Positions 5,240 through 51,893 of a stretch of 64,000 nucleotides of DNA are shown here, in pieces; the stretch's first letter is position 1, and each line of letters starts with the position of its first letter. The translations under genes and the position numbers were made by a program. This DNA comes from an uncultured Myxococcales bacterium (GTDB taxonomy: Bacteria > Myxococcota_A > Polyangia > Fen-1088). The notes beneath the pieces were generated by a model. That model made no database searches. It saw nothing but the letters and a program-made list of their open reading frames with translations, and was not told the DNA's origin. The stretch spans positions 10,221 through 74,220 of the forward strand of contig CAZPUH010000492.1 in assembly GCA_964589215.1 (NCBI GenBank). The letters run 5' to 3'.

Positions 5240-5577
5240 GAGGTGCCTCGAAAGCCTGCCCGGATGATTCGATTGATCGATTCGCCCGCTGCGTAGCCCA
5301 TCGCGCGCATGTGGGCTTTCGCCGCCTCGTTCGCATCGCGCGTCTTCGCTACCAGGTTGTTCACGACGAGAGGATCGGCACCATCGAGAATCGCCTGGGC
5401 CCGGAACGCCTCGAGCTCCGGCACGAAGTCCGCCGGCAACGGTCCCGGACCGATCCACGTCAGGGACGCGTGCCAGCGGTCGAGTCCTTTCAGATCTCGC
5501 CAGGCAACACAGGCCGCGGTGATGTCGTCGAAGACGCGCTCCTCCTGCGCGTAGCCGTAAATCAGCTTCCAGGCCAT
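5236..5577 (-). CDS. hypothetical protein
   Basis: 113 aa, MAWKLIYGYAQEE... The class I motif ends 7 nt upstream of the ATG. Confidence 0.65.
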   Translation of the reverse strand: MAWKLIYGYAQEERVFDDITAACVAWRDLKGLDRWHASLTWIGPGPLPADFVPELEAFRAQAILDGADPLVVNNLVAKTRDANEAAKAHMRAMGYAAGESINRIIRAGFRGTS

Positions 5578-5583
5578 GTCCGA

Positions 5584-5594
5584 GATACTACGCG
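5584..5594 (-). promoter_or_regulatory. class I promoter-like motif CGCGTAGTATC
   Basis: Exact 11-mer. TAGTAT ends 7 nt before ATG 5577. Its TAG is the stop codon of 5588..6529. Confidence 0.6.
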
Positions 5595-6529
5595 CCCAGC
5601 CCGGCCGTGGTCGGCTTGACCTCGCCGCCGCTCGCCACGGTCGCCGGCGCCCCCCATTCCGGCAGCCAGCTGACCATCACCTCGCGGTCGTGCGGACGGT
5701 TTGGCGGGTGCATGTACTCGACCGTTCGCACCACCTCGCCGGCGGCGTTCTTCACCTGCCAGATGAACGGCGCCAGGACGTCGACGGTCTGCCCGTCCAG
5801 ATCCTTCGAGTCGTCCCCCTCGCGCACGTCTCTGGTGGCGACCAGCCGTTTCATCAGCCGCGGCGTGGCGCGCCGTTTGAAATCGACCATCCCTCGCTGG
5901 GCGGCCGCGTTGGTGGCGTAGCTCATTTCGGTTCTGACGATGCGCTCCGCCCGCCAGCGCTGCCCCTCGAACAGGCCGTGCAGTGGGTTGGGATCGAGCA
6001 GGCGATCCACGGCCTCGTCCACGGTCTCGGCCTGCACCATCGACTGCGCGAGCCCGTTCCGGATCGCGTTCAGCGCCTGGGGCCCGTAGAGCTTGGAGCT
6101 GCGCCTGAAGCGATCGAGCAGGGTGGGCGCGATCTCCGGATAGACGCCGCGCACCACCGCCAGCTGGGTCGCCTGGATCACCGGCGTCATGCGGCCCATC
6201 GCACCCTCGACCTTGCCGATCATGTGCGCGACCTGGCGGGCGCCGGTGTTGGCGGCGAGCTCGCCCGTCTGTTCGATGTGCCGCCGGAGCGGTTCCTCCA
6301 TGTCCTTGATCGCGCTCGTCACCTGGGCCAGCACCGCCCGCAAATGCACCACGCTGAAGTTGTCGGCGCCCGCGGTCACCTGCAACAGGCGCAGGCGCTT
6401 GGCCAGCTCCTCGCGCGCCTGAACATAGATCGGCTTGAGCCGGCCCACCGCCCGGACGTCGGTCAGCCCAGCCAGTTGGGCGCGCTGCAAGTCAACAACC
6501 TGGCGGATGAGCGGGAGCGGAGACGGCAC
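5588..6529 (-). CDS. head morphogenesis protein, SPP1 gp7 / Mu F family
   Basis: 313 aa with the family-typical QRWRAERIVRTEMSYATNAA segment. Lies downstream of the portal. GTG start with AGGA upstream. Confidence 0.8.
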   Translation of the reverse strand: MPSPLPLIRQVVDLQRAQLAGLTDVRAVGRLKPIYVQAREELAKRLRLLQVTAGADNFSVVHLRAVLAQVTSAIKDMEEPLRRHIEQTGELAANTGARQVAHMIGKVEGAMGRMTPVIQATQLAVVRGVYPEIAPTLLDRFRRSSKLYGPQALNAIRNGLAQSMVQAETVDEAVDRLLDPNPLHGLFEGQRWRAERIVRTEMSYATNAAAQRGMVDFKRRATPRLMKRLVATRDVREGDDSKDLDGQTVDVLAPFIWQVKNAAGEVVRTVEYMHPPNRPHDREVMVSWLPEWGAPATVASGGEVKPTTAGLGA

Positions 6530-6712: not shown

Positions 6713-7606
6713 TTACTGCGCGCGCGGCGTGAATACCGCCCACTTATCCAGGTGGATCTCCTGGTTCGTGCTGCCCGCCGTGATCTCGGCGACCATGCGA
6801 GCCGACGCCGGCCCGTTGTTGAAGTTCGTCAGCGTCGTCATGGTCGGGCCAACCAGCGCACCGTCATAGATCAGCTGCAGCGCCGTGCCGTTGAAGTACA
6901 CGCCGACGTCGTGATACGCGCTGTCGAACGAGACCCCGGTGTCAACGACCGTCGTCGATCCTGCTGCCGCCTCGAGCAGGATGTGCGTCGTGGAGCGCAC
7001 GCCATCGATCATTGCGCCGACGTTCGCCGTCCCGCCCGTGAGCGCGGCGAGCTGGAAGAAGGTGTTGGCGTCCGGGGTAGTGGCGACCTTGACCCGGCTG
7101 ACGATTGCCCAGTGGGTCGTGGTGTCGTTCGCGACGAGAGCGTTCCCGTTGCTGTTGTTCAGGATGGCGACCGCAACGGAGGTAGCGCCGGTCTTGATCT
7201 GCAGCACCCCCCCCGTCTCGGAGGTCAGTACGTTGACCGCGCCCGTCGAGACGATCGTTCCAACCGTTGACGCCAGGGTCTTGGTCGCCAGCTCGTCCTG
7301 AAATGGAATCGAGTCGATAACGGAGTCGGTTCTGTTCAGGAAGGCCAGATACCGGCCGAACCAATCCGCGTATCTCGGCGTCTGCTGCCATTGATTGTTC
7401 CCGGCGCCGTACTTCTCCCACGCCTGCGTGCCAGCTCCATTGAGCACAACGAAGCCAAGCGGCGCAGCCAGACCGCCATCGGCGGTGCTCGGATCGAAAC
7501 TGACGTACTTTTCCGGCGGCGTGACGATGCCGACGCGTGCGTTGTTGCCGCTGCAGGCCGCGATCAGGGCCAGCGAGGCGAGAGTGGCCAGCAGGAGCTT
7601 TTTCAT
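6713..7606 (-). CDS. lipoprotein, beta-rich
   Basis: MKKLLLATLASLALIAAC lipobox. 297 aa from ATG 7606 (track start is 7618). Confidence 0.7.
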   Translation of the reverse strand: MKKLLLATLASLALIAACSGNNARVGIVTPPEKYVSFDPSTADGGLAAPLGFVVLNGAGTQAWEKYGAGNNQWQQTPRYADWFGRYLAFLNRTDSVIDSIPFQDELATKTLASTVGTIVSTGAVNVLTSETGGVLQIKTGATSVAVAILNNSNGNALVANDTTTHWAIVSRVKVATTPDANTFFQLAALTGGTANVGAMIDGVRSTTHILLEAAAGSTTVVDTGVSFDSAYHDVGVYFNGTALQLIYDGALVGPTMTTLTNFNNGPASARMVAEITAGSTNQEIHLDKWAVFTPRAQ

Positions 7607-9222: not shown

Positions 9223-10944
9223 TCACGGCCGCCCGCCGACCGCGGCCGCCCGCTCCAACTCGCTTTCGTAGGTCCCCAGCTGGTCGGCTGCGGCCTGCTT
9301 CGCCTCGGCCTCCGCCTTCGCCACCTCACCCTCGACGTCCTGCACGCCGTAGAACGGCGCCACCCGGCGTGCCGCCGTCGCCCGGGTGATGAACAGCGCC
9401 GCCTGGGCCTTCGCCGCGTTCTGGATCACCTGGCCCTTGTCGGCCTCGGTCGGCGGGAACCATGGGCCCCACAGGATGCTGACGTAGCCCCCCTCGCCCA
9501 GCGTGTACGGCTCCAGAGATTCATCGCCGGTGTCGGGGTCCTTCTTGCGCCGGAGCGGCAGATCGAACTGGACCACACCGATCCGTGGGTTGCCGTCCTC
9601 GTCCGGCGGCAGCTGACGTGGCGGCTGGCTCAGGAACTTTTGCGCCATGAAGACCACGATCTCCATCAGCGCCTCGATCGCCTCGCCGTACTGCTCGCGC
9701 AGGTCACCGGCCTTGGCCAGCATCGGCGCAAACCGGAGCTCGAGCGCCTCCGCGCTCTGCGCGGCCGCCATTGTTTCGTCGTTCGGAATCACCACCCCCG
9801 TAATCGTGTCCGTGTTCGCCTGCAGCTTGGTCGACAGCTCCAGCCCGGTGGTGACGCCGGCGCCTGACATCTCCATGTACTTGGCGCTCCCCTGCAGGCC
9901 GGTCTCGATGCCGTAGCGGGAACCTTTCTGCAAACCCTGTTGCTGCGCGACCTGGTTCACCGCGTGCGGATCGGTCGACGTCACGACGGTGGGGTCCATG
10001 TTTCCGAGCGTCGAATAAGCCGCCTGCGACAGGATGCGGTCGTCGGTGTCGATCGACTGGTAGGCGCCGTCGCAATCCGACTGCCCGTCCTCGGTCCCCT
10101 CCTCTTCGACAGCAGTGTTCAGGATCCATACGCCAGGGAAGCGGCCGAGATTGTGTTGAACCGCCAGCCCTTCTTCCGGAACCCACGACGCTGCTGGGTT
10201 CGCGATCGCGTCGTCGAACGCGACCTCCTTGTAAATGATGTCGCTCTTCTCGGTGATGATCCGCCGACACAGGTAATCGACCATCTCCGTCCCGATGATC
10301 TCGCCCTTGTCGTTGACCTTGTTCCGCTCGCGCACCGTCCGATACATGATCAGCAGGCCCGCCAACGAGCGATCCCGCGGGTCCTTCCAGACGGGCGTGC
10401 AGAACTTCGAGTTGTGCACCTCAAACGACCAGCGCCCCTCCCGCAGGTGAACGGTCATCGCCACCGATCCGATGCCGCCACCCAGGTTCCGTGCCGCACG
10501 CATCTTCGACCAGAACTTCGCCTTCTTGCGCACCGCCTCGAGGAAGGACGTCGTGTCCTCGTCGCCGTCGACCACGATCTGCGGCTTGCTCCGTTCGTTG
10601 AAGAGCAGGTTGGTGAACCGCTCGGTGGTCACCTTCGCCCGCCGCGTCGGCGCCGTCGGCCGCTTGTCCCTGACGTCGAGTTCTGGCCCGCCGCCGGTGG
10701 GAACCGTGCCACTCGGGTAGACGGCTTCGGCGGAGATCGTCTCCTTCGCCCGGGCCGGCATGTCGAACCAGTCGGTCTCTTGGTGGTCGTACTCCCGGCA
10801 GGTCAGAAACGCGTGCTTCCGATCGAGCGCTTTGAATCGCTCGGTCTCGTGGAAGACCGCCGTCCTCTGCAGGTGCTGGATGACCTGGTCGTCGGTGGGC
10901 TTGAAGGGTGCCGGCGCCGGCCGGCCATCAACGGTGGTGCTCAC
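9223..10944 (-). CDS. portal protein (putative)
   Basis: 573 aa, upstream of the Mu-F-like, scaffold and capsid genes. GTG start lies 7 nt after a TAGGCT hexamer. The N-terminus carries RPAPAPFK. Confidence 0.6.
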   Translation of the reverse strand: MSTTVDGRPAPAPFKPTDDQVIQHLQRTAVFHETERFKALDRKHAFLTCREYDHQETDWFDMPARAKETISAEAVYPSGTVPTGGGPELDVRDKRPTAPTRRAKVTTERFTNLLFNERSKPQIVVDGDEDTTSFLEAVRKKAKFWSKMRAARNLGGGIGSVAMTVHLREGRWSFEVHNSKFCTPVWKDPRDRSLAGLLIMYRTVRERNKVNDKGEIIGTEMVDYLCRRIITEKSDIIYKEVAFDDAIANPAASWVPEEGLAVQHNLGRFPGVWILNTAVEEEGTEDGQSDCDGAYQSIDTDDRILSQAAYSTLGNMDPTVVTSTDPHAVNQVAQQQGLQKGSRYGIETGLQGSAKYMEMSGAGVTTGLELSTKLQANTDTITGVVIPNDETMAAAQSAEALELRFAPMLAKAGDLREQYGEAIEALMEIVVFMAQKFLSQPPRQLPPDEDGNPRIGVVQFDLPLRRKKDPDTGDESLEPYTLGEGGYVSILWGPWFPPTEADKGQVIQNAAKAQAALFITRATAARRVAPFYGVQDVEGEVAKAEAEAKQAAADQLGTYESELERAAAVGGRP

Positions 10945-18456: not shown

Positions 18457-19956
18457 CTACCCCGTCGTGAACGCGGGCGGCATCGGTGCCAAGGAATCGG
18501 CCAGCGCAATCGGCGGCACCACCGCGCCCGCCACGCCCGCGGGGACCGCCAGCGGCGAGACCGGCAGCAGCAATGGCGGGACCCGCGCCTCCACGACGCC
18601 CCACGCCACGTTGCGCCACCACGCGGCAACGTAGGCATCCTTTCTGAGCCCGTAGTCGGGCATCCAGGCGTGCTCGGCAGCGTCCAGGGCGACGATTACA
18701 GGCGCGTTCGCCGGCGCCCCGCTGTCATCCCCCTCGAGGACCATGTTCCGCAGCCTGCCGCCCCGGCCATCGCGAACCGCGAGCACCCAGCTGGCGGCCG
18801 CGCGCGCCGCCTGGCGGAAGTCCGCCGCCCAGGCGTCGACCGACCCGAAGGCTTCGACCGCCGCGGCCGTGAACGCCGGGCCAGGTCCGGCGGCGCCCGC
18901 GCCGCGCGCCAGCCCCTCGAAGTAGAGTTCGTGCAGGACGACCGCGTTGTGGACGGCCGGCAGGCGCCGGCGGGCGGCATCCGCGGGGCTGGGCCCCGCC
19001 TCCCGGCCCAGGAATTCGCCCACGGTGAAGTCCAGCGCAGTGAACGGCACTCGGCGGCCCACCCGTTTGATCGGCGCGGGTCCGTAGGCCATCCCCTGGC
19101 CCACCAGCATGTCCTCAACCGCCAGGAGCTTGGCCAGCGCGGCGGGCCGGTCGGCGTAGGTCTCCCGCCACCGCGAGCCGGGGTCCAGCCAGCAGGCGAA
19201 CGTCTCCGCCCAGTCCTCGTCGGGGTGCTTCTGGCCGTAGTGCGCCAACGGCGCGCTGGCGTTCTGCGCGATGTAGGACACGTAGGCATCGCTGGCGGCC
19301 GGGTCGGGCGTGAAGTCGTCCTGGTAGGGCGCCGCGAAGTTCCCGAAGGTCTCCCCCCACTTGATCCGCTGGTACAGCAGGTAGGCGTAGCCCAGGGCGT
19401 GTCCGAGCTCGTGACGCAGGATGCGCAGGACGTCGTCGACCGAGTACCGCAGGAAGTTGTCGTTCACCAGCGCCCAAAGGGCGTCGCTCGCCAGGTACCA
19501 GGGCAGGTTGATCGAGACCGCCTGATCGGCCGTCCAGAAGTCGGAGTCGCCCACGTACCAGGACGGCCGCCAGGTGATGCCGCGATCCTGCAGCTCCCCC
19601 TCCACCTGGGCGATGGCTTCGGCCAGCTTTCCGGTCGGCTCGAGCAACGGCAGGTCCCGCACCGGGGTGACCAGCAGCTGGTGGGCTTCCGCCGCTGGCA
19701 GCCCGCCGGTTGACCGCGCGCTGGCGCCAGCCACCGCGTCGAGCTCGGCCATCTCAACGACGTAGCGCCGATAGAGCTCCAGATGGTCGGCTAGCACCCG
19801 GTCGGAGATCCCGACCAGACCGCCCGTCAGGAGCGCCGTGAAATCACGCGGCGCGGCCGGTGCCGGCGCCTGCTTTTCCTCGGCGGCCCAGCGGCGCGCC
19901 ATCGCGGGGTGTGTCGCCCACATCCATCTTCGTTGCTTGGCGCTCTGCCATGGCAT
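18457..19956 (-). CDS. zinc metallopeptidase-like (HELGH) domain fused to a Fe/Mn-SOD-like domain
   Basis: RHELGHALGY. C-terminal FGSVDAWAADF...ASWVLAV...LDAAEHAWMPDYGLRKDAYVAAWWRNVAWGVV parallels the SOD pattern FGS.D..F..GSGW.WL..D.WEHAYY..R..Y...W.vvNW. Confidence 0.6.
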   Translation of the reverse strand: MPWQSAKQRRWMWATHPAMARRWAAEEKQAPAPAAPRDFTALLTGGLVGISDRVLADHLELYRRYVVEMAELDAVAGASARSTGGLPAAEAHQLLVTPVRDLPLLEPTGKLAEAIAQVEGELQDRGITWRPSWYVGDSDFWTADQAVSINLPWYLASDALWALVNDNFLRYSVDDVLRILRHELGHALGYAYLLYQRIKWGETFGNFAAPYQDDFTPDPAASDAYVSYIAQNASAPLAHYGQKHPDEDWAETFACWLDPGSRWRETYADRPAALAKLLAVEDMLVGQGMAYGPAPIKRVGRRVPFTALDFTVGEFLGREAGPSPADAARRRLPAVHNAVVLHELYFEGLARGAGAAGPGPAFTAAAVEAFGSVDAWAADFRQAARAAASWVLAVRDGRGGRLRNMVLEGDDSGAPANAPVIVALDAAEHAWMPDYGLRKDAYVAAWWRNVAWGVVEARVPPLLLPVSPLAVPAGVAGAVVPPIALADSLAPMPPAFTTG

Positions 19957-23097: not shown

Positions 23098-23384
23098 CGG
23101 GCGCCTCCATCCGGAGATCGCCACAGGATCGTGTTGGTACCGGAGAACACGAACGCCCTTTCGCCCAACCTGACGACCAGGTAACCCCGCAAGAAGCCAT
23201 CGCCGCGCGACGCATTCTCGATTCGCGTCGCCTGCCCGGCGGCCACGCGATGGTCCGTGTACGTCTTGTCGTGCAGCCAGGTCCGCCCCTTGCCGTCCAT
23301 GATGACGATCGCGAATTCGCGCTCTGCGGCGACCTTGGTCAGCCCAAGCGTCGCGATATCCCCGAGCCAATTCTCAGAAGCCAT
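23094..23384 (-). CDS. hypothetical protein
   Basis: 96 aa, MASENWLGDIATLGLTK... GAGGAG SD. Confidence 0.55.
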   Translation of the reverse strand: MASENWLGDIATLGLTKVAAEREFAIVIMDGKGRTWLHDKTYTDHRVAAGQATRIENASRGDGFLRGYLVVRLGERAFVFSGTNTILWRSPDGGAR

Positions 23385-23658
23385 GGGCGTTCTTCTCCTC
23401 AATGGCGGGCGCCGCGTCCGGCCCCGCGTCCGCCGCCGTGACAACCGGCGCCGCGTCGTCGTCGTCCGCCGAGCCGGCGATCTCGAAGCTGGGCGGCGGG
23501 GTCGTCTCGTGCACCGGCGCCGTCCAGATCGACGACCCAGCGCTGAGCGTTCCGACCGTCTCGACTGGCACCGGTGCATGCGCCGCACAGCCGGCCAGCC
23601 CCAGAAAGATTCCGAGCGCCAGCGCGAGCCGCATCACTCCGTGTTCCTGCCGGTTCAC
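23374..23658 (-). CDS. lipoprotein
   Basis: MRLALALGIFLGLAGC lipobox. Start is GTG 23658 (GTGA overlap) or ATG 23634. Confidence 0.6.
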   Translation of the reverse strand: MNRQEHGVMRLALALGIFLGLAGCAAHAPVPVETVGTLSAGSSIWTAPVHETTPPPSFEIAGSADDDDAAPVVTAADAGPDAAPAIEEKNAHGF

Positions 23659-26386: not shown

Positions 26387-26617
26387 TCAGGCTGGCCTCA
26401 GGTCAAGGAACGGGCATTCCGGTCCGCACGGTGTTGGATCTCCGGCCGAGGTGAACACCAGTCCGGTCTCGTCGCAGGTCTCGCAGCCCTCAGGCTGCAG
26501 ATTCAGGCACTCCGGGCAAAGATCGACCTCCAGCCCATGTCGCTCGTGCGCGTGCGAAAGCCGCGCGAGCTGCTGCGCCTCCGTTCCGATCCCCAGTCGG
26601 TCACCGCTCGTTTTCAC
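26387..26617 (-). CDS. Cys-rich small protein
   Basis: 76 aa with CPEC and CETC pairs. GTGA overlap. Confidence 0.5.
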   Translation of the reverse strand: MKTSGDRLGIGTEAQQLARLSHAHERHGLEVDLCPECLNLQPEGCETCDETGLVFTSAGDPTPCGPECPFLDLRPA

Positions 26618-26898
26618 GGCCCAATCGCTCCCTCCGCCCGCTGCCGCTGCGCGGGTCCAAACTGCGCTTCGATCGCCGCCAGCACCTGCTCGACATCGCC
26701 AAACGGCGCCCCCCAGGTCGTGCCCAGCCGCGGCACCTCGACCACCACCTGGCCGGTCTCCTCGACCACGCCCCAGGTCGACTGGTTGATCGGCCAGCCG
26801 GACCGGATCGCCAGCCAGCAGGCGTAGGCGCGCTGGACACGGTCCATCCGCGCGTGACCGGCGCGTCGCTGTTCGTCTGGCGGATTCAGATCGAGCAT
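26614..26898 (-). CDS. hypothetical protein
   Basis: 94 aa from ATG 26898 (MLDLNPPDEQ...). Confidence 0.5.
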   Translation of the reverse strand: MLDLNPPDEQRRAGHARMDRVQRAYACWLAIRSGWPINQSTWGVVEETGQVVVEVPRLGTTWGAPFGDVEQVLAAIEAQFGPAQRQRAEGAIGP

Positions 26899-27089
26899 CA
26901 ACGCCTGACCTTTTTGCACCGCTTGCAGGTGGCGCATCGCGGATCGAGCGTCCAGAGCAGCCCCCGCCGGCCGCCCGCCAAGCGCTTGGTCCAGTCGCCG
27001 ATCGGGCGCGCGCGGCGCTCGTGCCGGATGTAGTCCCGGCAGATGGTGCAGCCGCGTGGGCTGTGCTTCGTGGCGCCGGCGGGAATCAT
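26898..27089 (-). CDS. zinc-ribbon small protein
   Basis: MIPAGATKHSPRGCTICRD...CATCKRC. A class I motif lies upstream. Confidence 0.5.
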   Translation of the reverse strand: MIPAGATKHSPRGCTICRDYIRHERRARPIGDWTKRLAGGRRGLLWTLDPRCATCKRCKKVRR

Positions 27090-27100
27090 TTGACCCACCG

Positions 27101-27111
27101 GATACTACGCG
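27101..27111 (-). promoter_or_regulatory. class I promoter-like motif CGCGTAGTATC
   Basis: Exact 11-mer. ATG 27089 is 12 nt downstream (GTG 27098 is 3 nt downstream). Confidence 0.55.
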
Positions 27112-27129
27112 CGCTGGCGCGCGGCGCGC

Positions 27130-27381
27130 TCAGGTCCGGATCGGTTCGAGCCGCAGCCGAGCCACCGCGATTTCGTTCGTGGGCTTCACGTGCTGGATCG
27201 GCACCAGCGTCACCCGTCCGACCGGCACGTCCTCGTCCCCCGCCGTCACCTCGAGCTCGACCAGCTTGGGCTCGCCCAACACCTTCGTCGGGTAGCCCAG
27301 CATGATCGCCTGCACCGTAACGTCCCGCCCGCGGTGCTGGACGGTGGCGCGGACCTCAGCTCTCCGGTCGATCAGCGTCAT
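27130..27381 (-). CDS. hypothetical protein
   Basis: 83 aa, MTLIDRRAEVRATVQH... ATGA overlap. Confidence 0.5.
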   Translation of the reverse strand: MTLIDRRAEVRATVQHRGRDVTVQAIMLGYPTKVLGEPKLVELEVTAGDEDVPVGRVTLVPIQHVKPTNEIAVARLRLEPIRT

Positions 27382-27491
27382 CGCCCGTGCGATGCCGGAT
27401 GCGCGCCGCCCGCGTGCGCCAGGCCGATGACCGTCAGGCCGGCGAACGCCAGTGCGCCGGCCAGGATGATGGCGGACCAGACGCGCGACAT
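27378..27491 (-). CDS. small single-pass membrane peptide
   Basis: 37 aa, MSRVWSAIILAGALAFAGLTVIGLAHAGG... 1-nt TGATG junction. Confidence 0.45.
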   Translation of the reverse strand: MSRVWSAIILAGALAFAGLTVIGLAHAGGAHPASHGR

Positions 27492-27784
27492 CAGCGGCAC
27501 GCGTCGATCGCCGCGCAGCTGGATGCGGCGCTGCGGCAGCCAAGATCCCAGGTGGCGATCCCGGTGCCCTGCACGTTGGAGCACACCTCTTCGCATGACG
27601 CGCCCTGCGGCGTCGGCTGCGCGAAGGGGCAGCCGAGACGGCGCCCGTTCTGGCAGACGGCGGCGCAGGTGCCGGGCGCGGCGGCGGCATCGCTCGCATC
27701 TGGCGTCACCGGCGGGGGCGCGGGCGGGCAGCCGGGGCAGCTGGCCAGCACGAGGAATGCCAGCAAACCGATCGCGCGGATCAC
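27491..27784 (-). CDS. Pro/Cys-rich lipoprotein
   Basis: VIRAIGLLAFLVLASCPGCPPAPPPV lipobox. GTGA overlap with the peptidase stop. Confidence 0.6.
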   Translation of the reverse strand: MIRAIGLLAFLVLASCPGCPPAPPPVTPDASDAAAAPGTCAAVCQNGRRLGCPFAQPTPQGASCEEVCSNVQGTGIATWDLGCRSAASSCAAIDACR

Positions 27785-28647
27785 GGCGTCACCCCCTGGT
27801 AGTCGGCGAACCACAGATCGTTGGTCGACTCGTCCATCAGGTACTTCGGTGTCATCCAGAACATCCCCCGGTCGCCCCAGCCCTCGGACCAGGAATTGAC
27901 GACCCTGAATTTCACGCCGCCCACCACACCCGGGTCGAAGACGGCGCGGACGATCCGCATGCAGTGCCCCCCGTCGATGTCACCCGGATCGGGCGCGTCG
28001 ACCAGGAACCCCGGCGGGAGCCGGTTCGACGCGAAGGCGTTGGTGACGTTCGTTCCGAAGACGACCGGGCAGGGCTTTCCGCCTTTGCCTGCGGCCGAGA
28101 GGGCGCGCAGCACATCGTCTACCCGCCTCGTTCCCGTGCTCATGATCCGCCCGTAGTCGATTGGCGCGCGCTGGTCGTACGCCAACCGAAAGACGTCCGC
28201 CGGCGGCTTGCTCATCGCCGGGCTCGGGTTCGCGTCGGTGTATGGCAGCGCGCTCTCGGGAGGCAGTCCAAGGCGCTCCAACACCTCCGCCCCATCGCCG
28301 ACGTAGGCCCCTTCAAACCGGCTGATGTCGCCCTCGATGGCATGCATCAGGTACATCAGCCAGAGCCGCGACCCGAGCGTCGGGGACGGGTTCCCGTTGC
28401 GCTGAACGCAGTCACGGACCGCGCCGGCCCAGCCGTGGGATACGCAGTAGGGCGCTCCGCCCTGGTCGAGGATCCCGGCGGCCCGGATCGCGTCTTCATC
28501 GAGGCCGCAGTCGGTCGTCGGCACGGGGATGCCGGCCAGCGTCGTCGCCGCGTCCCGTCGCGGCGGCACGCCGAGAAGATGCCGCAGGTCGGGCTTGTAG
28601 CCGTGGCCCGCCTCGGGATGGCCGCGCTTCTGAAAGTCCTCGACCAT
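27781..28647 (-). CDS. papain-like (C1 family) cysteine peptidase
   Basis: QGGAPYC (Q-x5-C as in papain Q19/C25), DGGHCMRIV (His), VVNSWSEGWGDRGMFWM (NSWG..WG..G). Confidence 0.65.
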   Translation of the reverse strand: MVEDFQKRGHPEAGHGYKPDLRHLLGVPPRRDAATTLAGIPVPTTDCGLDEDAIRAAGILDQGGAPYCVSHGWAGAVRDCVQRNGNPSPTLGSRLWLMYLMHAIEGDISRFEGAYVGDGAEVLERLGLPPESALPYTDANPSPAMSKPPADVFRLAYDQRAPIDYGRIMSTGTRRVDDVLRALSAAGKGGKPCPVVFGTNVTNAFASNRLPPGFLVDAPDPGDIDGGHCMRIVRAVFDPGVVGGVKFRVVNSWSEGWGDRGMFWMTPKYLMDESTNDLWFADYQGVTP

Positions 28648-28649
28648 GA

Positions 28650-29186
28650 TCAGGTGCTCTTCTTCATGCCGAAGCTGAACACCCAGTGCAGCTCGCTCGG
28701 CAGTGACGAGACGCCAATGAACTCCTCGGCGCCGAACCCGACGCTCACCCAGTCGATGATCGTCAGGATCGGCAGCGCCTCGATCGCGAAGTATTTCGCG
28801 CCAGGGACGGAGCTCGAATTGTCTATCAGGCTCGCCTGGACGAAGACGTCGAAGGCGATCACGGCGTTGGTCATCGTCCAGCCCGCGGGCTTGTACTTCA
28901 GCCCATAGCCGATGCCCGGCACGATCCCCGTCACGTACTGGCGGCTCTTCAGGTCGATCTGGAAGACGTCGAAGCCGACGGACGGACCGAGCCAGAGGTC
29001 TCCCGTTGCACCGACCTTGACGTCCCCCGTTGCCCCGTCTGTCGGCAGCGGCTGGACGGGCTCCGCGTGCGGTCCGCTCAGGTAGGTGCGGCCAAATTCA
29101 GCGCGCGCCGGCGGCGCGCCACACAAGATCAATAGGGCCGCAATGGCCGGGAGCAAAAGGCGGGCGGCGTTCTTCATGCCGTCCAT
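28650..29186 (-). CDS. secreted beta-rich protein (possible outer-membrane protein)
   Basis: Signal peptide MKNAARLLLPAIAALLILCGAPPARA/EF, then alternating aromatic/Gly beta-like segments. Confidence 0.55.
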   Translation of the reverse strand: MDGMKNAARLLLPAIAALLILCGAPPARAEFGRTYLSGPHAEPVQPLPTDGATGDVKVGATGDLWLGPSVGFDVFQIDLKSRQYVTGIVPGIGYGLKYKPAGWTMTNAVIAFDVFVQASLIDNSSSVPGAKYFAIEALPILTIIDWVSVGFGAEEFIGVSSLPSELHWVFSFGMKKST

Positions 29187-29222: not shown

Positions 29223-29636
29223 TCAGTTCGGCTCTTCCTCGTCGTCGCCCTTGGGGCCCCGCTCCAAACCGGTGACGGGCATGAACTCCTGCAGCTCCTC
29301 GGCCGTCATCGCGCGCTCCTCGACCACCTCGTCGTTATCGTCGCGCCGGACCAGCACCTTCTTGTTTGCGAAGTGGAACTCATTGACCACGTACATGGTC
29401 CGGTTCTCCTTCTCCTCCTCGCAGTCGATCCGAAGCTGGGCGTTCTCCGCCTTCAGCGTCTTCACCTTGTCCTTGAGGGGGCGCATGTCCTCCTCGAGAT
29501 TCACGATCTTGGTGAGGTTCTTTCGGATCTGTGTCTGCTTTTCGGCGACCTCCTCCGGCGTGATGTCGACCTGAATCTCTTTCTTAAACCGCTTGCTTCG
29601 CTCGACGTCTCCGCTGCTGCTGCTCTTCTTCCCCAT
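29223..29636 (-). CDS. hypothetical coiled-coil protein
   Basis: 137 aa, K/E-rich, in a locally lower-GC region. Confidence 0.6.
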   Translation of the reverse strand: MGKKSSSSGDVERSKRFKKEIQVDITPEEVAEKQTQIRKNLTKIVNLEEDMRPLKDKVKTLKAENAQLRIDCEEEKENRTMYVVNEFHFANKKVLVRRDDNDEVVEERAMTAEELQEFMPVTGLERGPKGDDEEEPN

Positions 29637-29639
29637 CGG

Positions 29640-29999
29640 TCAGTTTCCCTTTCCGCTCTTTTTCTCGAGCTTGTCCCTCACCATCTCGCCGTACTTTGCG
29701 GCGAGCATCTTGCCGAGTTCGCGGCCGGCCGCCACGAGCTCGCGCCGATCGTCGGTGATCGGCAAGTCCTCGACGATGGCCACGATCGCCCCGTAGTGCA
29801 TGAAGACGGTCGCAACGTCGCCCGGGATCAGGCCGGCCTCTTCGATCCGGTCCTCGATCGCCTTGTTCGTGGTCAGGGTCTCGGTGACCACCTTCGAAAC
29901 CAGGGCCTCGACCATCTTGGGTTGCATGCCCCGGATGCCGCGGCACACCTTCTTGACGTCTTCCATTGCCTTCTCGACGTCTTCGGGGCTGAAGTTCAT
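29640..29999 (-). CDS. hypothetical protein
   Basis: 119 aa from ATG 29999 (MNFSPEDVEKAM...). The class I motif ends 7 nt upstream. Confidence 0.6.
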   Translation of the reverse strand: MNFSPEDVEKAMEDVKKVCRGIRGMQPKMVEALVSKVVTETLTTNKAIEDRIEEAGLIPGDVATVFMHYGAIVAIVEDLPITDDRRELVAAGRELGKMLAAKYGEMVRDKLEKKSGKGN

Positions 30000-30005
30000 C
30001 CCCGG

Positions 30006-30016
30006 GATACTACGCG
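30006..30016 (-). promoter_or_regulatory. class I promoter-like motif CGCGTAGTATC
   Basis: Exact 11-mer. TAGTAT ends 7 nt before ATG 29999. Confidence 0.6.
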
Positions 30017-30029
30017 GCAACGGACGATT

Positions 30030-32036: not shown

Positions 32037-32058
32037 CTCGGCCCATGGTAGACGATCC

Positions 32059-32075: not shown

Positions 32076-32441
32076 ATGACGTATGTGACCCTGACGCCGA
32101 AGACCAACCGGATCACGGTCCGCACGACGCTCCGCCCCAGCGCCGCCTACGCCCACCGCGACTTCGCCGTCAGCATCCAACCGGTGCACGCCGGCCTGAC
32201 GTTCACCGTGTGGGGTCGGACCGAGCCTGGACGGGCGAAGTTCAGGCCATGCACCGAGCTCGGCGACGACTTCCTCAGCCGGGTCGAGGAGGTCGTGGTT
32301 GGCGCGGGACTGGATGAACTATCCAAGCTGGCGCTCGGTCGGACCCAGGACGACGCCACCGTGAAGCGGATCATTGACGTGGTCCGCGATCTGCTCGAGT
32401 GCACGGCGGCGCCCGAGCAGAAGCTGGCGGACGCCGCCTAG
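32076..32441 (+). CDS. hypothetical protein (plus strand)
   Basis: 121 aa with very high GC3. Divergent from TerL across a 39-bp gap. Confidence 0.65.
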   Translation: MTYVTLTPKTNRITVRTTLRPSAAYAHRDFAVSIQPVHAGLTFTVWGRTEPGRAKFRPCTELGDDFLSRVEEVVVGAGLDELSKLALGRTQDDATVKRIIDVVRDLLECTAAPEQKLADAA

Positions 32442-32995
32442 GCCACCAGCGGCGGGCGAGCCGCCACCAGCGGCGGTGCGCCCGGCATCACGATCCCGCT
32501 GACCGTCTTCGGCGCCCGGCCCCAGGCCACGATCGCAGCCTCGATGTTCTCCTCCCAGCTGTCGTCGCCACCAGACGGATACGGCACCGCGCCAGAGAGA
32601 ATGTCGCGCGCGCTGATGCCCTGGAGCTGGATGTGCGGCTGTTCGAAGTTGAGATAGGTCAGCCCCACCTGGGCGGCCAACAGATGGAACTCGTCCCAGC
32701 TGTGGCCCGCCGGCGGCGTCCAGGACCACGCTCCGTTGAAGTACCAGACCCAGTCGCAGGCCAGGCCGTACTGGTGCAGCGACTGCCAGGCCATCTCGTA
32801 GGTGACCTTTCGACCGGGCGTCCCGACGCCCTCCACGCGCCCCTCGGTGTAAAGCAGCGCCTGCCGATCGGGCGAGCGCCACATCTCGAACGGCTCGATC
32901 GGAAGCCCCTTGCCCTGCACCAGCGCCAGAAGATCGGCGTTGAGCTTTCGGAAGGTCGGGTGCAGGTGGCTCGGGTCGACGTCGCGCGCGCTCAT
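32438..32995 (-). CDS. endolysin, peptidase M15 (VanY / L-Ala-D-Glu peptidase-like)
   Basis: RSPDRQ, SLHQYGLACD (SxHxxGxAxD), EQPH motifs. Confidence 0.75.
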   Translation of the reverse strand: MSARDVDPSHLHPTFRKLNADLLALVQGKGLPIEPFEMWRSPDRQALLYTEGRVEGVGTPGRKVTYEMAWQSLHQYGLACDWVWYFNGAWSWTPPAGHSWDEFHLLAAQVGLTYLNFEQPHIQLQGISARDILSGAVPYPSGGDDSWEENIEAAIVAWGRAPKTVSGIVMPGAPPLVAARPPLVA

Positions 32996-33005
32996 GCGCC
33001 GAATG

Positions 33006-33335
33006 CTACCCGAGCTTCGGCGTCACCTGGTAGCGGAAGAAGTCGCCAGGCGGATAGGTCACCATGCCGTCGTTGAACGTGACCAGCAGCAGGCCCGGGC
33101 GCGCGGTCTCGGTCGCCAGCCAACGATGCTGCACGTAGGCCCCTTTCCGATCGATGTAGTCCTGGGCGGGGTCCAGGGTCGTTTTGCTGGCGCCGCCGCA
33201 GCCATCGGCCGGCCGGACCGTGCAGGTGACTGTCTTGCCGGTCAGGTCGGGCGCCGTGCCGTCAGCGCCCAGCAGCTGGACCTGCGCCGGCGGCGCCGTG
33301 TCGCCCTGCCTGACCTCGCCGTCCGGGACCCGCAT
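33006..33335 (-). CDS. beta-sandwich (BppU_N/Ig-like?) small protein
   Basis: 109 aa, MRVPDGEVRQGDTAPP...DLTGKTVTCTVRP... The fold call is tentative. Confidence 0.5.
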   Translation of the reverse strand: MRVPDGEVRQGDTAPPAQVQLLGADGTAPDLTGKTVTCTVRPADGCGGASKTTLDPAQDYIDRKGAYVQHRWLATETARPGLLLVTFNDGMVTYPPGDFFRYQVTPKLG

Positions 33336-41243: not shown

Positions 41244-41444
41244 ATGCTGGAGCCCATGCGGATCATCCTGTCCCTGCTGGGCGGCCTGCTGACCATCGGC
41301 ACCGGGTGCTATGCCGGTCACGACTGCAAGCCCGGGCAGGCGTGCTGGACTAACTGCGCGACCGATCCGAACGGGCCCGGGTGTGCTGACCCCTGGCAGC
41401 CGGTCCCGATCGGCGCGCGGCCCGACGGCGGCGCCCGAGACTGA
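41244..41444 (+). CDS. small secreted/lipoprotein-like Cys-rich protein (plus strand)
   Basis: MLEPMRIILSLLGGLLTIGTGC... 66 aa with very high GC3. Convergent with dnaB. Confidence 0.5.
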   Translation: MLEPMRIILSLLGGLLTIGTGCYAGHDCKPGQACWTNCATDPNGPGCADPWQPVPIGARPDGGARD

Positions 41445-42866
41445 TCACCAGCGCAGGTCTTCCTGGGGATCTGGCTCGTGATCCTCGCGCTCCTCGAAGA
41501 CCGTGTATTCGGGCAGCCAGTCGACCTGGATCGTTCCAGGGTGACCGCCGCGGTACTTGCCGAAGATCAGCTTGGCGGGGTGCCGCCCCACCGCAGGCGG
41601 CGCGCTGTCCCACCAAGGAAAGACCACGACGTCCGCGTCCTGCTCGACGGCGCCTGACTCGCGCAGGTCGGTCAGGTTTGGCGCCCGCATCTTGCCGTCC
41701 TTGCCCACCATGTTCCGATTGAGCTGGCTGCAGAGCACCACTGGGCAGCCGAGTTGTTTGGCCAGCTTCTTCATCGCGCGCGTGATCTTGGCGACCTCGC
41801 GCTCGCGCGTGCGCTCGTCCTTGTCGGCCTCCACCAACCCCAGGTAGTCGACGATCACCAGCGCGCGCCCCTCCGGTGCGTGCCGCGCGCGCCAGCGCCG
41901 CGCCTCAGCGCAGATCTGCTGGGTGCGCAGGACGCGTTCGTCGACCCACAACGGGATTTCGTACAGCTTGCCCATCGCGCCCGTGAGGCGCACCCATTCG
42001 GGTCCGGTGAGCCGCCCGAGTCCGATCGCGTGACCGTTCACCTTGGCCGCGTTGGCCATGGCGCGCTCGATCAGTTCGTCTCGGCTCATCTCCAGCGAAA
42101 ACACCAGCGTGGGCACGCCCGCTCGAGCAGCCGCCACCGCCACCGTGTTGACCGCCCAGGCGGTCTTCCCGCCGCCCGGACGCGCGGCGACGATGATCAG
42201 GTGCTTGGCCCGAAGGCCGCCCACTTTGCGATCCACCGACGCGATCCCGGTCGGCACCAGGAAGTCCTCCGGCGCGCTGGCCCGTCGTTCGATCCGCTCG
42301 GTGACGTCGACCAGCACCTCGCCGATTCGCCGCGGGCCATCGTCGCCGCGCAGCTCGAGTCCCGCCACCGATCCCCGTAGGTCGTTCAGGAACGCCTCGA
42401 CGTCGGTTGGCCCCCCGTAGGCCACCGACACCGCCTCCAGGCATGTCGCGATCGCCCGCCGCAACGTTGCCTTGGCCGCGATCACCCTGGCGTAGTGCCG
42501 AACGTTCTCCGCCGTCGGCGTGTCATTCGCCAGCGAGACCAAGAACGCCTCGCCCCCGTCCAGCCGCTGCAGCCGCCCGCGAGCGCGGAGTTCGTCGGCA
42601 ACCGCCAAAATCTCCACCGGCCGACCCGCTGCGGCGACGTCCCGCATCACCTCGAAGATCTCCCGGTGCACGGGGAAGAAGAAATCGTCCACCCCGAGAT
42701 CGGTCAGGTCGTCGAGCGACGCAGGCCGGATGAACACCGACCCCAGCGCCCCCCGCTCCGCCCGTTCGCTGTGCGGCGGCACCTTCCCAACCAGGTCGAG
42801 CGTGGCATTTTTCCCCACGCCGTCAGACCGCCTGGCTTCGCTTCTGCTGCGCGCGTTCTCGTCCAA
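41445..42866 (-). CDS. dnaB: replicative DNA helicase DnaB
   Basis: PPHSERAERGALGSVF N-terminal motif, Walker A ARPGGGKT, FSLEMS, IVDYLGL. The start (TTG 42866) is uncertain. Confidence 0.85.
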   Translation of the reverse strand: MDENARSRSEARRSDGVGKNATLDLVGKVPPHSERAERGALGSVFIRPASLDDLTDLGVDDFFFPVHREIFEVMRDVAAAGRPVEILAVADELRARGRLQRLDGGEAFLVSLANDTPTAENVRHYARVIAAKATLRRAIATCLEAVSVAYGGPTDVEAFLNDLRGSVAGLELRGDDGPRRIGEVLVDVTERIERRASAPEDFLVPTGIASVDRKVGGLRAKHLIIVAARPGGGKTAWAVNTVAVAAARAGVPTLVFSLEMSRDELIERAMANAAKVNGHAIGLGRLTGPEWVRLTGAMGKLYEIPLWVDERVLRTQQICAEARRWRARHAPEGRALVIVDYLGLVEADKDERTREREVAKITRAMKKLAKQLGCPVVLCSQLNRNMVGKDGKMRAPNLTDLRESGAVEQDADVVVFPWWDSAPPAVGRHPAKLIFGKYRGGHPGTIQVDWLPEYTVFEEREDHEPDPQEDLRW

Positions 42867-51446: not shown

Positions 51447-51857
51447 CTAGACCTGCGGGGCCGCCTGACGGTCGAGCTTCGCCTGGAACTTCTCGTTTGA
51501 AGGCACGGGGTTGCGCGCCAGGAAGCCCATGACGATGCCCGCCAGGCCGACCAGATGGAACAGCACCGTCACGTGCGGGTGGGACAGCATCAGGGCGTTG
51601 AGCCAGACGCCGTGCACGGTCTGGGTGGCCGCGATCAGGAGTGACAGGTAACCGAGCTTCTGGGCGGTCGCGACCGATACCACGACGGGCTGGAACCCGA
51701 ACGTCATCAGCACGCCCCCAAGGGCCTCCAAGCACGAAATCCCGCCGGGAGACATCGCCAGCTGACCCGCCATCGCGGCGCCCGCGACGGCGCCGACCAG
51801 CAGCGCGACCAGCGACATGAAGACCTTGAACACCTTGGCCAGGAGCGTGAGGTTCAT
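51447..51857 (-). CDS. multi-pass membrane protein (holin candidate)
   Basis: 136 aa from ATG 51857, with 3-4 hydrophobic spans (VFMSLVALLVGAVAGAAMAG, GVLMTFGFQPVVV, LGYLSLLIAA, LFHLVGLAGIVMGFLA). Confidence 0.5.
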   Translation of the reverse strand: MNLTLLAKVFKVFMSLVALLVGAVAGAAMAGQLAMSPGGISCLEALGGVLMTFGFQPVVVSVATAQKLGYLSLLIAATQTVHGVWLNALMLSHPHVTVLFHLVGLAGIVMGFLARNPVPSNEKFQAKLDRQAAPQV

Positions 51858-51863
51858 GACGTC

Positions 51864-51893
51864 ATCGTGGCAGGCAAAAAAAGACTTCGTCAA
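51864..51893 (-). promoter_or_regulatory. class II promoter-like element TTGACG-N18-CACGAT, 6 nt before ATG 51857
   Basis: Lies in a 260-nt non-coding gap. The spacing implies a leaderless start. Confidence 0.35.

Follow-up and report, generated by a model that had tools for sequence, protein, structure and literature searches.

What does a papain-like peptidase without an export signal do in a bacteriophage, when its gene runs directly into that of a small lipoprotein? This question is raised by the 64,000-nucleotide stretch analysed here (the window), which covers positions 10221–74220 of contig C492 (87,962 bp) within a 962-contig metagenome-assembled genome (MAG) of an uncultured Myxococcales bacterium. 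Nearly all genes of the window lie on its minus strand, and an earlier note, made from the letters alone, had described five of them, running from 29186 to 27130, as an operon. All five are present: g1 (28650–29186, minus strand, 178 aa), with a signal peptide ending ...PPARA before EF; g2 (27781–28647, minus strand, 288 aa), the peptidase; g3 (27491–27784, minus strand, 97 aa), which starts at a GTG overlapping the g2 stop codon and carries the lipobox LASC; g4 (27378–27491, minus strand, 37 aa), with one transmembrane (TM) segment; and g5 (27130–27381, minus strand, 83 aa), with neither a signal nor a TM segment. The junctions from g1 to g5 read TGAtcATG (a 2-nt gap), GTGA, TGATG, and ATGA, exactly as claimed. 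The G+C content at third codon positions (GC3) was 0.84–0.90 in g1–g5 (0.87 in g4 and 0.90 in g5) versus 0.75–0.78 in alternative longer overlapping frames; these are therefore coding genes and not chance open reading frames (ORFs) of 67% G+C sequence. As judged from sequence comparison, the conserved core of this cassette is the g2–g3 pair; the five genes are no fixed operon, and the functional unit would be this pair with an exported protein whose family can change.

We compared g2 with the sequences in the PDB to establish its family. Residues 11–280 matched xylellain of Xylella fastidiosa (3OIS, E = 1.3e-19). The homologues of g2 formed 54 clusters, and a profile of 18 of them, aligned down to 26% identity, reached 3OIS at 2e-52 and 163 distinct C1A chains at E ≤ 1e-3, including actinidin, cathepsins K, L, H, and B, and Lpg2622. 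Gln62, Cys68, and His228 were invariant in the 18 homologues, Asn251, Ser252, and Trp253 were conserved in at least 90%, and the motifs QGGAPYC, GGHC, and NSWSEGWG are present in g2. In Pfam, only Peptidase_C1_2 was matched (E = 0.017, 14.4 bits versus a cut-off of 22), Peptidase_C1 (PF00112) did not reach its gathering score for g2, and PF00112 was found precomputed on 17 more distant homologues; in PHROGs, only a family labelled "peptidase" was matched, at 3e-4. Searches of all five proteins against Pfam, NCBIfam, PHROGs, and PADLOC gave weak peptidase matches only. These results indicate that the g2 clade is divergent within C1A, so that structure-sequence and residue tests decide its membership, and that g2 is a predicted C1A peptidase of the short bacterial, xylellain type. 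The papain-like C1 assignment of the earlier note is upheld by the 3OIS match and the profile matches, and the catalytic residues to which it pointed are kept in the homologues.

A signal peptide was absent from g2, as the note had remarked, and from all 17 aligned homologues. At its N-terminus, g2 is extended by about 55 aa containing a GYKPD motif, a feature shared by the homologues and aligned to the N-terminal part of 3OIS; in xylellain, an N-terminal propeptide reportedly serves as a self-inhibitor. There are no conserved disulfide cysteines, and Cys68 is the sole invariant Cys. The gene is sporadic in the host lineage, with a homologue in 1 of 40 related genomes, and the chromosomal homologue of a same-genus genome (G008) is leaderless, 34% identical, and stands alone among housekeeping genes. 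Such peptidases occur at no fewer than 88 viral loci in IMG/VR, and xylellain-type peptidases have been acquired by Mimiviridae, Myo- and Siphoviridae (PMC10380794). The view that a C1 peptidase is unusual in a phage therefore needs amending, as C1A enzymes of tailed phages are already in the literature; what is new here is the conserved partnership of the peptidase with a lipoprotein.

The lipoprotein g3 consists of a lipoprotein signal (…FLVLASC), a Pro-rich linker, and a 58-aa domain with eight conserved Cys residues in the pattern C-x3-C … C … C-x3-C … C … C … C. Its N-terminus is MIRAIGLLAFLVLASC followed by PGCPPAPPPV..., and the mature protein has 81 aa. For the comparison of relatives we used DNA stretches around homologues (L-numbered loci), whose genes were called by simple rules, some small membrane proteins being missed by the crude caller. 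The lipobox was found in 17 of 17 aligned g3 relatives with an intact N-terminus, the L090 copy being cut at its 5' end; the lipobox, the Pro-rich linker, and the eight Cys residues agree with the Pro/Cys-rich lipoprotein described before. An AlphaFold2 model based on 18 sequences predicted a compact domain of four short helices, with a predicted local distance difference test score (pLDDT) of ~95 over residues 40–97. Neither this model in Foldseek nor the g3 profile had a match in the PDB, no model in Pfam, NCBIfam, or PHROGs matched g3, and the only match of Foldseek in BFVD was a protein from an uncultured phage, labelled just "Lipoprotein". When 1.84 billion representatives were searched with the profile, 1,547 clusters (~1,550, counted at 50% identity) passed E ≤ 1e-3, and 471 passed E ≤ 1e-10. 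Nearly all members were stand-alone proteins of 85–130 aa, with a few tandem duplications. These results indicate that g3 represents a large, undescribed family of predicted lipoproteins.

Several members of this family deviate from the stand-alone form. Two tandem g3 Cys-rich domains were seen in the lipoproteins P0080, P0081, P0082, P0085, and P0091. In a bacterial lipoprotein (L098:1231–2256, from G400:C764), a g3-like Cys-rich domain is fused to FG-GAP/VCBS-like repeats (DLDGDG...) without a peptidase in the vicinity, so that the domain also occurs outside the phage pair. The g3 homologue of L001, an ENA nanopore contig, runs on into 70 extra residues (6861–7373), which is probably an assembly frameshift error and not a real fusion.

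A peptidase gene followed by g3 was found in the window and in L001–L004, L008–L014, L018, L022, L023, L088–L090, L094, and L095 (at least 20 loci), and these paired loci span 31–89% peptidase identity. The g3 start overlapped the peptidase stop in 13 of 17 tabulated adjacent loci (ten with RTGA and three with TGATG), to which the pairings of L001, L004, and L090 are additional. The distance matrices of g2 and g3 correlated (Mantel r = 0.53, p = 2e-4). When 401 genomes of the phylum were searched with g3 as the starting point, three foreign matches appeared, and in two of them the gene immediately upstream was a peptidase. At ~65 loci of viral C1 peptidases that are more distant, some of them in giant-virus MAGs, no g3 was found. 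These results indicate that g2 and g3 are inherited together and are, from their overlapping codons, most probably translationally coupled. Of the five genes, co-occurrence in other genomes thus held for the g2–g3 pair, whereas g5 was without relatives and g4 had positional analogues only. Close relatives of the region were scarce: blastn against GenBank phages gave no match, tblastn against the same phages gave only two distant matches (a jumbo uncultured phage and Burkholderia phage FLC9), and a profile search of genome contigs with a closer alignment found no relative.

The gene upstream of the peptidase encoded an exported protein in every g3-bearing locus examined, and its family varied. 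The g1 family lies directly upstream in the window, L089, and L006, and a distant g1 relative does so in L012 (hhalign 86%, E = 4.7e-6). This position is taken by a family of 130–320-aa Cys-rich lipoproteins in L001, L002, L003, L090, and L095, by a second lipoprotein family in L009, L010, L018, L023, L090, and L094, and by still other exported proteins in the remaining loci. In L006, a 269-aa protein (5531–6340; LGCC...GGHC...ETWG) stands between the g1 homologue and a Cys-rich lipoprotein. It matched the C1 profile weakly in hhalign (E = 7e-4), with the Cys and His motifs aligned, and may be a clan CA peptidase, either diverged or of another kind, within a cassette of unchanged architecture.

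The position of the cassette also varied. In the closest relative, L089 (peptidase 89% and g1 90% identical), and in L002, L003, L004, and L094, it is part of a Mu-like head module, with the Mu-type portal gene on one side and the MuF gene on the other. In L088 and L095 it comes before TerS and TerL, in L090 before Gp80, HNH, and tail-fibre-like genes, and in the window and L001 it is near DUF5131. These positions indicate that the cassette is mobile between phage types. A protein of 111–114 aa (FTLGEGDTGV...), possibly Ig-like, was observed after g3 or g4 in L002, L003, L089, L094, and L095; a weak relative of it is encoded at 33018–33335 of the window (tblastn E = 0.005), adjoining the endolysin candidate described below.

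Homologues of g1 (22 sequences) share a signal peptide, a variable Pro-rich linker, and a conserved 115-aa domain. The AlphaFold2 model (pLDDT 78) has six strands of 12–16 residues and two short ones, and Foldseek against the PDB ranked Ail, OmpA, OmpX, and PagL at the top, none of them significantly (all E > 0.02, TM-score < 0.3). The C-terminus reads ...HWVFSFGMKKST, its terminal residue not being aromatic. With its signal peptide and six long predicted strands, g1 fits the secreted beta-rich protein of the earlier description; we regard it as a secreted protein of predicted all-beta fold and possibly a small outer-membrane beta-barrel. A bacterial chromosomal homologue of g1 was found in L007. 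PDB sequence and profile searches for g1, g3, and g5 gave nothing.

In g4, a single TM segment is predicted with the N-terminus inside and a C-terminal tail of 12 aa. One-pass peptides of 37–50 aa occupy the position after g3 in L088, L089, and L094, and their sequence is not conserved; considered as a holin candidate, g4 had only weak matches in PHROG, to families without assigned function (E = 0.045). No relative of g5 was found by tblastn at E ≤ 1 in any locus compared, and g5 matched nothing in Pfam, PHROG, NCBIfam, PADLOC, or PDB. A similarity to g5 seen by eye after g3 in L001 was dropped, as it was unsupported by tblastn at this threshold.

A 66-aa Pro/Cys-rich lipoprotein with the sequence ...GTGC followed by YAGHDCKPGQACWTNCATDPNGPGC... 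is encoded on the plus strand of the window (41244–41444), between the DnaB gene (41445–42866) and a 528-aa gene. By eye, its mature sequence is ~70% identical to that of a 67-aa lipoprotein of L094. It is o-spanin-like in style, without a partner, and its family directly precedes the cassette in L002, L003, L006, L088, L089, L090, and L094.

Lysis of Gram-negative hosts is taught as the successive work of holin, endolysin, and spanin, and the earlier note had likened g3 to an o-spanin. This likeness was not sustained. The lipobox and the small Pro-rich, Cys-containing form of an o-spanin are present in g3, and the other two of the three features tested are lacking. No i-spanin-like gene was found on the 88-kb contig, g4 having a TM segment but a tail of 12 aa only and the coiled coil g0 (see below) no TM segment, and the predecessor of g3 was a leaderless peptidase in every locus and never an i-spanin. 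Furthermore, the periplasmic part of o-spanins is largely unstructured, whereas that of g3 is predicted to be a compact helical domain with eight Cys residues. Because the i-spanin partner is absent and the domain is folded, we do not file g3, which co-varies and travels with the peptidase, as a spanin; it is not a classical o-spanin, though it may do related work. Reading g3 and g4 as a split u-spanin was rejected, as the frame of g4 is a different one, its tail is very short, and its sequence is not conserved. A 94-aa lipoprotein (23374–23658) was considered as the true o-spanin and was likewise rejected, as the gene preceding it has no TM segment.

We examined the genes around the cassette for a connection with lysis. 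In the window, an M15/VanY-like endolysin candidate (32438–32995, minus strand) lies 3.3 kb upstream of g1, close to where the note had placed one. It matched the endolysin family phrog_2649 at E = 5.5e-7 and Pfam VanY at E = 0.0027, below the cut-off, and on the gene strand only an intein-bearing TerL ATPase gene stands between it and the cassette operon. The holin candidate proposed 23 kb away (51447–51893, 148 aa, 3–4 TM segments) found no family support. Among the relatives, there is a match to PHROG holins two genes before the peptidase in L010 (E = 1.2e-7) and L012 (E = 6.7e-7) and a weaker one in L014, and a two-TM 84-aa gene is upstream of the peptidase in L022. The gene immediately after g3 encodes an SLT enzyme in L014; in L010, whose 99.5-kb genome is complete, an Amidase_2 protein is encoded 1 kb past g3; and L011 has a weak Amidase_2 match 0.7 kb away. 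Counting matches over threshold, 3 of 5 contigs had a wall hydrolase no more than 3.5 kb from the cassette (chance P = 0.005), and counting all matches, 4 of 7 did (P = 0.002). The gene directly after a distant phage C1 peptidase encodes an Rz-like spanin in L024 and an XhlA-like protein in L045. Small membrane proteins or lipoproteins made up 30% of the genes up to two positions away from phage C1 peptidases versus 14% from the fourth position outwards (odds ratio 2.65, p = 1.8e-7).

On these grounds we tentatively favour an accessory, holin-dependent protease module that would act on the envelope at lysis; it would be neither an endolysin replacement nor a classical spanin. The conserved tight coupling argues that g2 and g3 work together in the envelope. 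As the disulfide-rich g3 must fold in the periplasm, the leaderless g2 would have to exit the cytoplasm, and the holin is the ordinary exit route for leaderless enzymes of phages; this route, combined with the neighbourhoods described above, points to a holin-dependent, envelope-directed protease. We infer the compartment, the g2–g3 interaction, the substrate, and the timing as follows. During infection, g3, g1, and g4 would be exported and g2 would stay cytoplasmic, where its N-terminal extension may inhibit it in the manner of xylellain. Opening of the inner membrane by the holin would let g2 enter the periplasm and meet g3, which may anchor, activate, or restrain it. There g2 could cleave envelope proteins, for example the tethers of the outer membrane to the wall or other outer-membrane proteins, and so assist the M15 endolysin in the last steps of lysis. 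Of the earlier suggestion of an envelope- or host-protein-processing module, the envelope direction fits the neighbourhoods of the relatives, while the fixed five-gene module does not stand.

Several observations weigh against this holin-dependent reading. C1A enzymes are proteases, and we know of none that has been shown to act in phage lysis. The sole SLT match of L018 and L022 lies 16–22 kb from the cassette, and five of the closest loci hold the cassette in a Mu-like head module, far from visible lysis genes. In a PHROG census of 150 neighbours, lysis families were among the recurrent ones, with 2–3 members each and no clear excess over chance; a PHROG "holin" label is itself weak evidence, and all-against-all clustering of the C1-peptidase neighbours revealed no large shared family. 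The enrichment of small membrane proteins would equally fit a superinfection-exclusion or moron region, and a periplasmic partner made in stoichiometric amounts could as well be an inhibitor or an immunity protein. Moreover, the substrate of xylellain is not known (PMC12090721).

If inhibition were its true role, g3 would be a periplasmic inhibitor of g2, as Tai proteins inhibit type VI amidase effectors and staphostatins inhibit staphopains, in an enzyme–inhibitor (effector–immunity-like) or superinfection-exclusion module. Infected or lysogenic cells would thereby be shielded from a protease acting outside or brought along by incoming or released phage, while g1, g4, and the small lipoproteins would remodel the surface or serve in exclusion, like lambda Lom/Bor or T5 Llp. 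An enzyme gene followed by a small coupled partner is the typical layout of effector–immunity pairs, and here the gene of a leaderless papain-fold peptidase is coupled to the following one, which encodes a small exported protein rich in disulfides. The exported partners can be exchanged, the cassette sits in moron-like slots and moves between phage types, and in the Mu-like relatives it lies between portal and MuF, a region encoding ejected head proteins; the lipoprotein at 41244–41444, related to those preceding the cassette, stands alone on the opposite strand in the replication module. We nevertheless consider the inhibitor explanation rather unlikely, because the unit uses a 12-nt promoter-like motif of the other phage operons (see below) and not a separate host-type promoter, g3 is unlike any known inhibitor fold, PADLOC gave no match, and lysis accounts better for the holin, SLT, and amidase genes near the pair in L010, L012, and L014; no evidence of an integrase or lysogeny was seen, though none was sought. 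It is more improbable that g2 acts in the cytoplasm, in host takeover, in the destruction of host defence or other proteins, or in the processing of phage proteins, with its exported neighbours as unrelated passengers. A free-thiol enzyme suits a reducing compartment, which agrees with the missing signal peptide and with Cys68 as the only invariant Cys, and the chromosomal xylellain-type homologues are also leaderless and stand alone (G008). The location of the cassette inside head modules points the same way, but those Mu-like relatives already carry their own head protease, gpI. A purely cytoplasmic role also leaves unexplained the 1- or 4-nt overlap with g3 in 13 of 17 loci and the co-variation of the two proteins, the always-exported product of the upstream gene, and the small membrane proteins enriched around even distant phage C1 peptidases.

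The possibility that g2 is itself the endolysin, cutting the peptide stems of peptidoglycan with g3 and g4 as a minimal two-part spanin, appears very remote to us. It draws on the endolysin-like slot (holin, X, peptidase, lipoprotein) of L010, L012, and L022 and on the peptidase placed directly before an Rz-like spanin in L024, and the clan CA enzymes CHAP and NlpC/P60 are endolysins (PMC10318531). Yet g2 matched only the protease family C1A and no peptidoglycan-hydrolase family, C1A enzymes are proteases of L-peptides, an M15 candidate is present here, SLT (L014) or Amidase_2 (L010) stands beside the pair, and the 12-aa periplasmic tail of g4 and the folded domain of g3 are unlike spanin parts. 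None of six wall-hydrolase families was found in the 94–96% complete contigs of L008 and L009, a result that would suit an endolysin; only these six families were tested, and the GH19 control gave no signal. The absence could mean either that the cassette is the lysis enzyme of these phages or that too few families were tested.

The transcription of the cassette was examined through a recurrent 12-mer, sCGCGTAGTATC. Counted with up to 2 mismatches, it had 20 copies in the window versus 4.9 expected, and 0 of 100 shuffles reached 20. Nineteen of the 20 copies were intergenic and on the gene strand, with an ATG 5–9 nt downstream in at least 13. The minus-strand sites include those at 5584, 17683, 20200, 27101, 30006, 35318, 41218, 42875, 47703, 48964, and 50590, and one plus-strand site is at 32058. 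There were 23 copies on contig C492, from 594 to 87641, and none in the other 961 contigs of the MAG. We interpret the 12-mer as a putative phage-specific promoter element (extended -10 TAGTAT) for leaderless mRNAs. Because it spans the contig in this way and the G+C content differs (67.5% in C492 versus 70.7% in the MAG), the contig looks like phage DNA throughout that was binned with the MAG and not like a prophage with host flanks; no terminal overlap of the contig was found. A Polyangia host for this uncultured soil phage is suggested by one homologue named "Polyangia bacterium" and by the G+C content.

Copies of the 12-mer flank the region from 29999 to 27130, and the transcription unit is therefore probably one of seven genes, g0b, g0, and g1–g5. 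The upstream copy, CCGCGTAGTATC (30006..30017, minus strand), ends 6 nt before the ATG of g0b and is the probable start of the unit; the other, GCGCGTAGTATC (27101..27112, minus strand), lies 17 nt past the g5 stop codon, with the ATG of the next unit at 27089. The five-gene operon of the earlier note is thus correct in its genes and their joins and probably two genes too short. The probable first gene, g0b (29640..29999, minus strand), encodes a cytoplasmic protein of 119 aa (GC3 0.87), which has a 36% identical homologue ~1.2 kb upstream of the cassette in L001 and matched nothing in Pfam, PHROG, NCBIfam, or PADLOC. The next gene, g0 (29223..29636, minus strand), encodes a highly charged coiled coil of 137 aa (GC3 0.88, G+C content at second codon positions 0.29) without a TM segment; family searches gave no significant match, and two paralogues are upstream of the cassette in L006. 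PADLOC defence models matched none of g0b, g0, g1–g5, and the small lipoprotein. A scan for sigma-70 promoters and intrinsic terminators around the cluster found no site on the gene strand, its sole result being a plus-strand terminator-like site inside the coding region of g0b, and the GC-rich stretch past g5 folded no better than shuffles.

Two further observations concern genes outside the unit. A 63-aa Cys-ribbon ORF (CTIC...CATCKRC; 26898–27089, minus strand) starts 11 nt past the promoter-like motif that follows g5 and overlaps the start of a 107-aa ORF (26614–26937). Proteins starting ...L(V/T)G(I/G)SDR(M/V)LA(A/D)HL... are common to L012 (7349–8716) and the window (18457–19956).

The recurrence of such a protease–lipoprotein pair in several phage types would suggest that proteolysis contributes to envelope breakdown or remodelling; the phages of soil and of Myxococcota-type hosts are almost unexplored. 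A broader proposal, which we put forward as doubtful, is that g2 and g3 form an undescribed two-component periplasmic proteolysis device of phages of diderm bacteria, with the exported beta protein or lipoprotein and the small membrane peptide as exchangeable accessories and with outer-membrane proteins or protein links as targets at lysis. Such a device would do, or help with, the spanin job of model phages, it would give xylellain-type C1A peptidases their first biological role, and the g3 family, for which Pfam has no entry, would be its hallmark. Should g3 be an inhibitor instead, it would represent a new fold of cysteine-protease inhibitor. In either case, the g2–g3 pair is small, self-contained, and easily testable.

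Among known systems, g2 is closest to xylellain (3OIS) and the short bacterial C1A peptidases, including Lpg2622, which it resembles in full-length similarity, in the Gln/Cys/His/Asn set, in its size of ~280 aa, in the lack of a signal peptide, and in the N-terminal extension with a G-Y-x-P-D motif. The phage clade differs in being tied to a dedicated g3 and an exported upstream partner, whereas the chromosomal homologue is alone. The cassette also resembles the lambda S-R-Rz/Rz1 and the T1 holin–endolysin–u-spanin lysis cassettes, in that a lipoprotein of the outer-membrane type, with a Pro-rich stretch, comes after a leaderless enzyme, small membrane proteins are encoded alongside, holin-like, SLT, or amidase neighbours occur in relatives, and an endolysin candidate is close in the window. 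However, the enzyme comes from a protease family and not from a known wall hydrolase family, g3 has a folded 8-Cys domain and no i-spanin, the tail of g4 has 12 aa, and the C1A cassette is often outside any lysis cluster.

Mycobacteriophage LysB (PMC5707550), which cuts the anchorage of the outer layer, and the phiKT "disruptin" (bioRxiv 10.1101/515445), which disrupts the outer membrane without spanins, are likewise extra factors beside holin and endolysin for the outermost layer, and about 15% of the phages of Gram-negative hosts are without spanins (bioRxiv 10.1101/515445). These factors are an esterase and a cationic peptide and share neither sequence nor fold kinship with the cysteine protease g2, whose comparable role we infer. 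In the staphopain–staphostatin, type VI Tae–Tai, and B. fragilis C10 pairs (PMC2873492), in which a protease or amidase is co-transcribed with its inhibitor or immunity partner, a papain-fold peptidase is followed by a small partner gene, the Tae–Tai partner is periplasmic, and such pairs occur on mobile elements; g3 is unlike the staphostatin, chagasin, Tai, and Rap folds, and there is no secretion system here. Finally, the cassette shares with the morons lambda Lom and Bor, T5 Llp, and Cor the variable slots and small, probably disulfide-bonded lipoproteins, and g1 may be a counterpart of their small outer-membrane beta protein, whereas those morons include no protease and show no sequence similarity to the present genes, which appear to use a phage-wide promoter motif.

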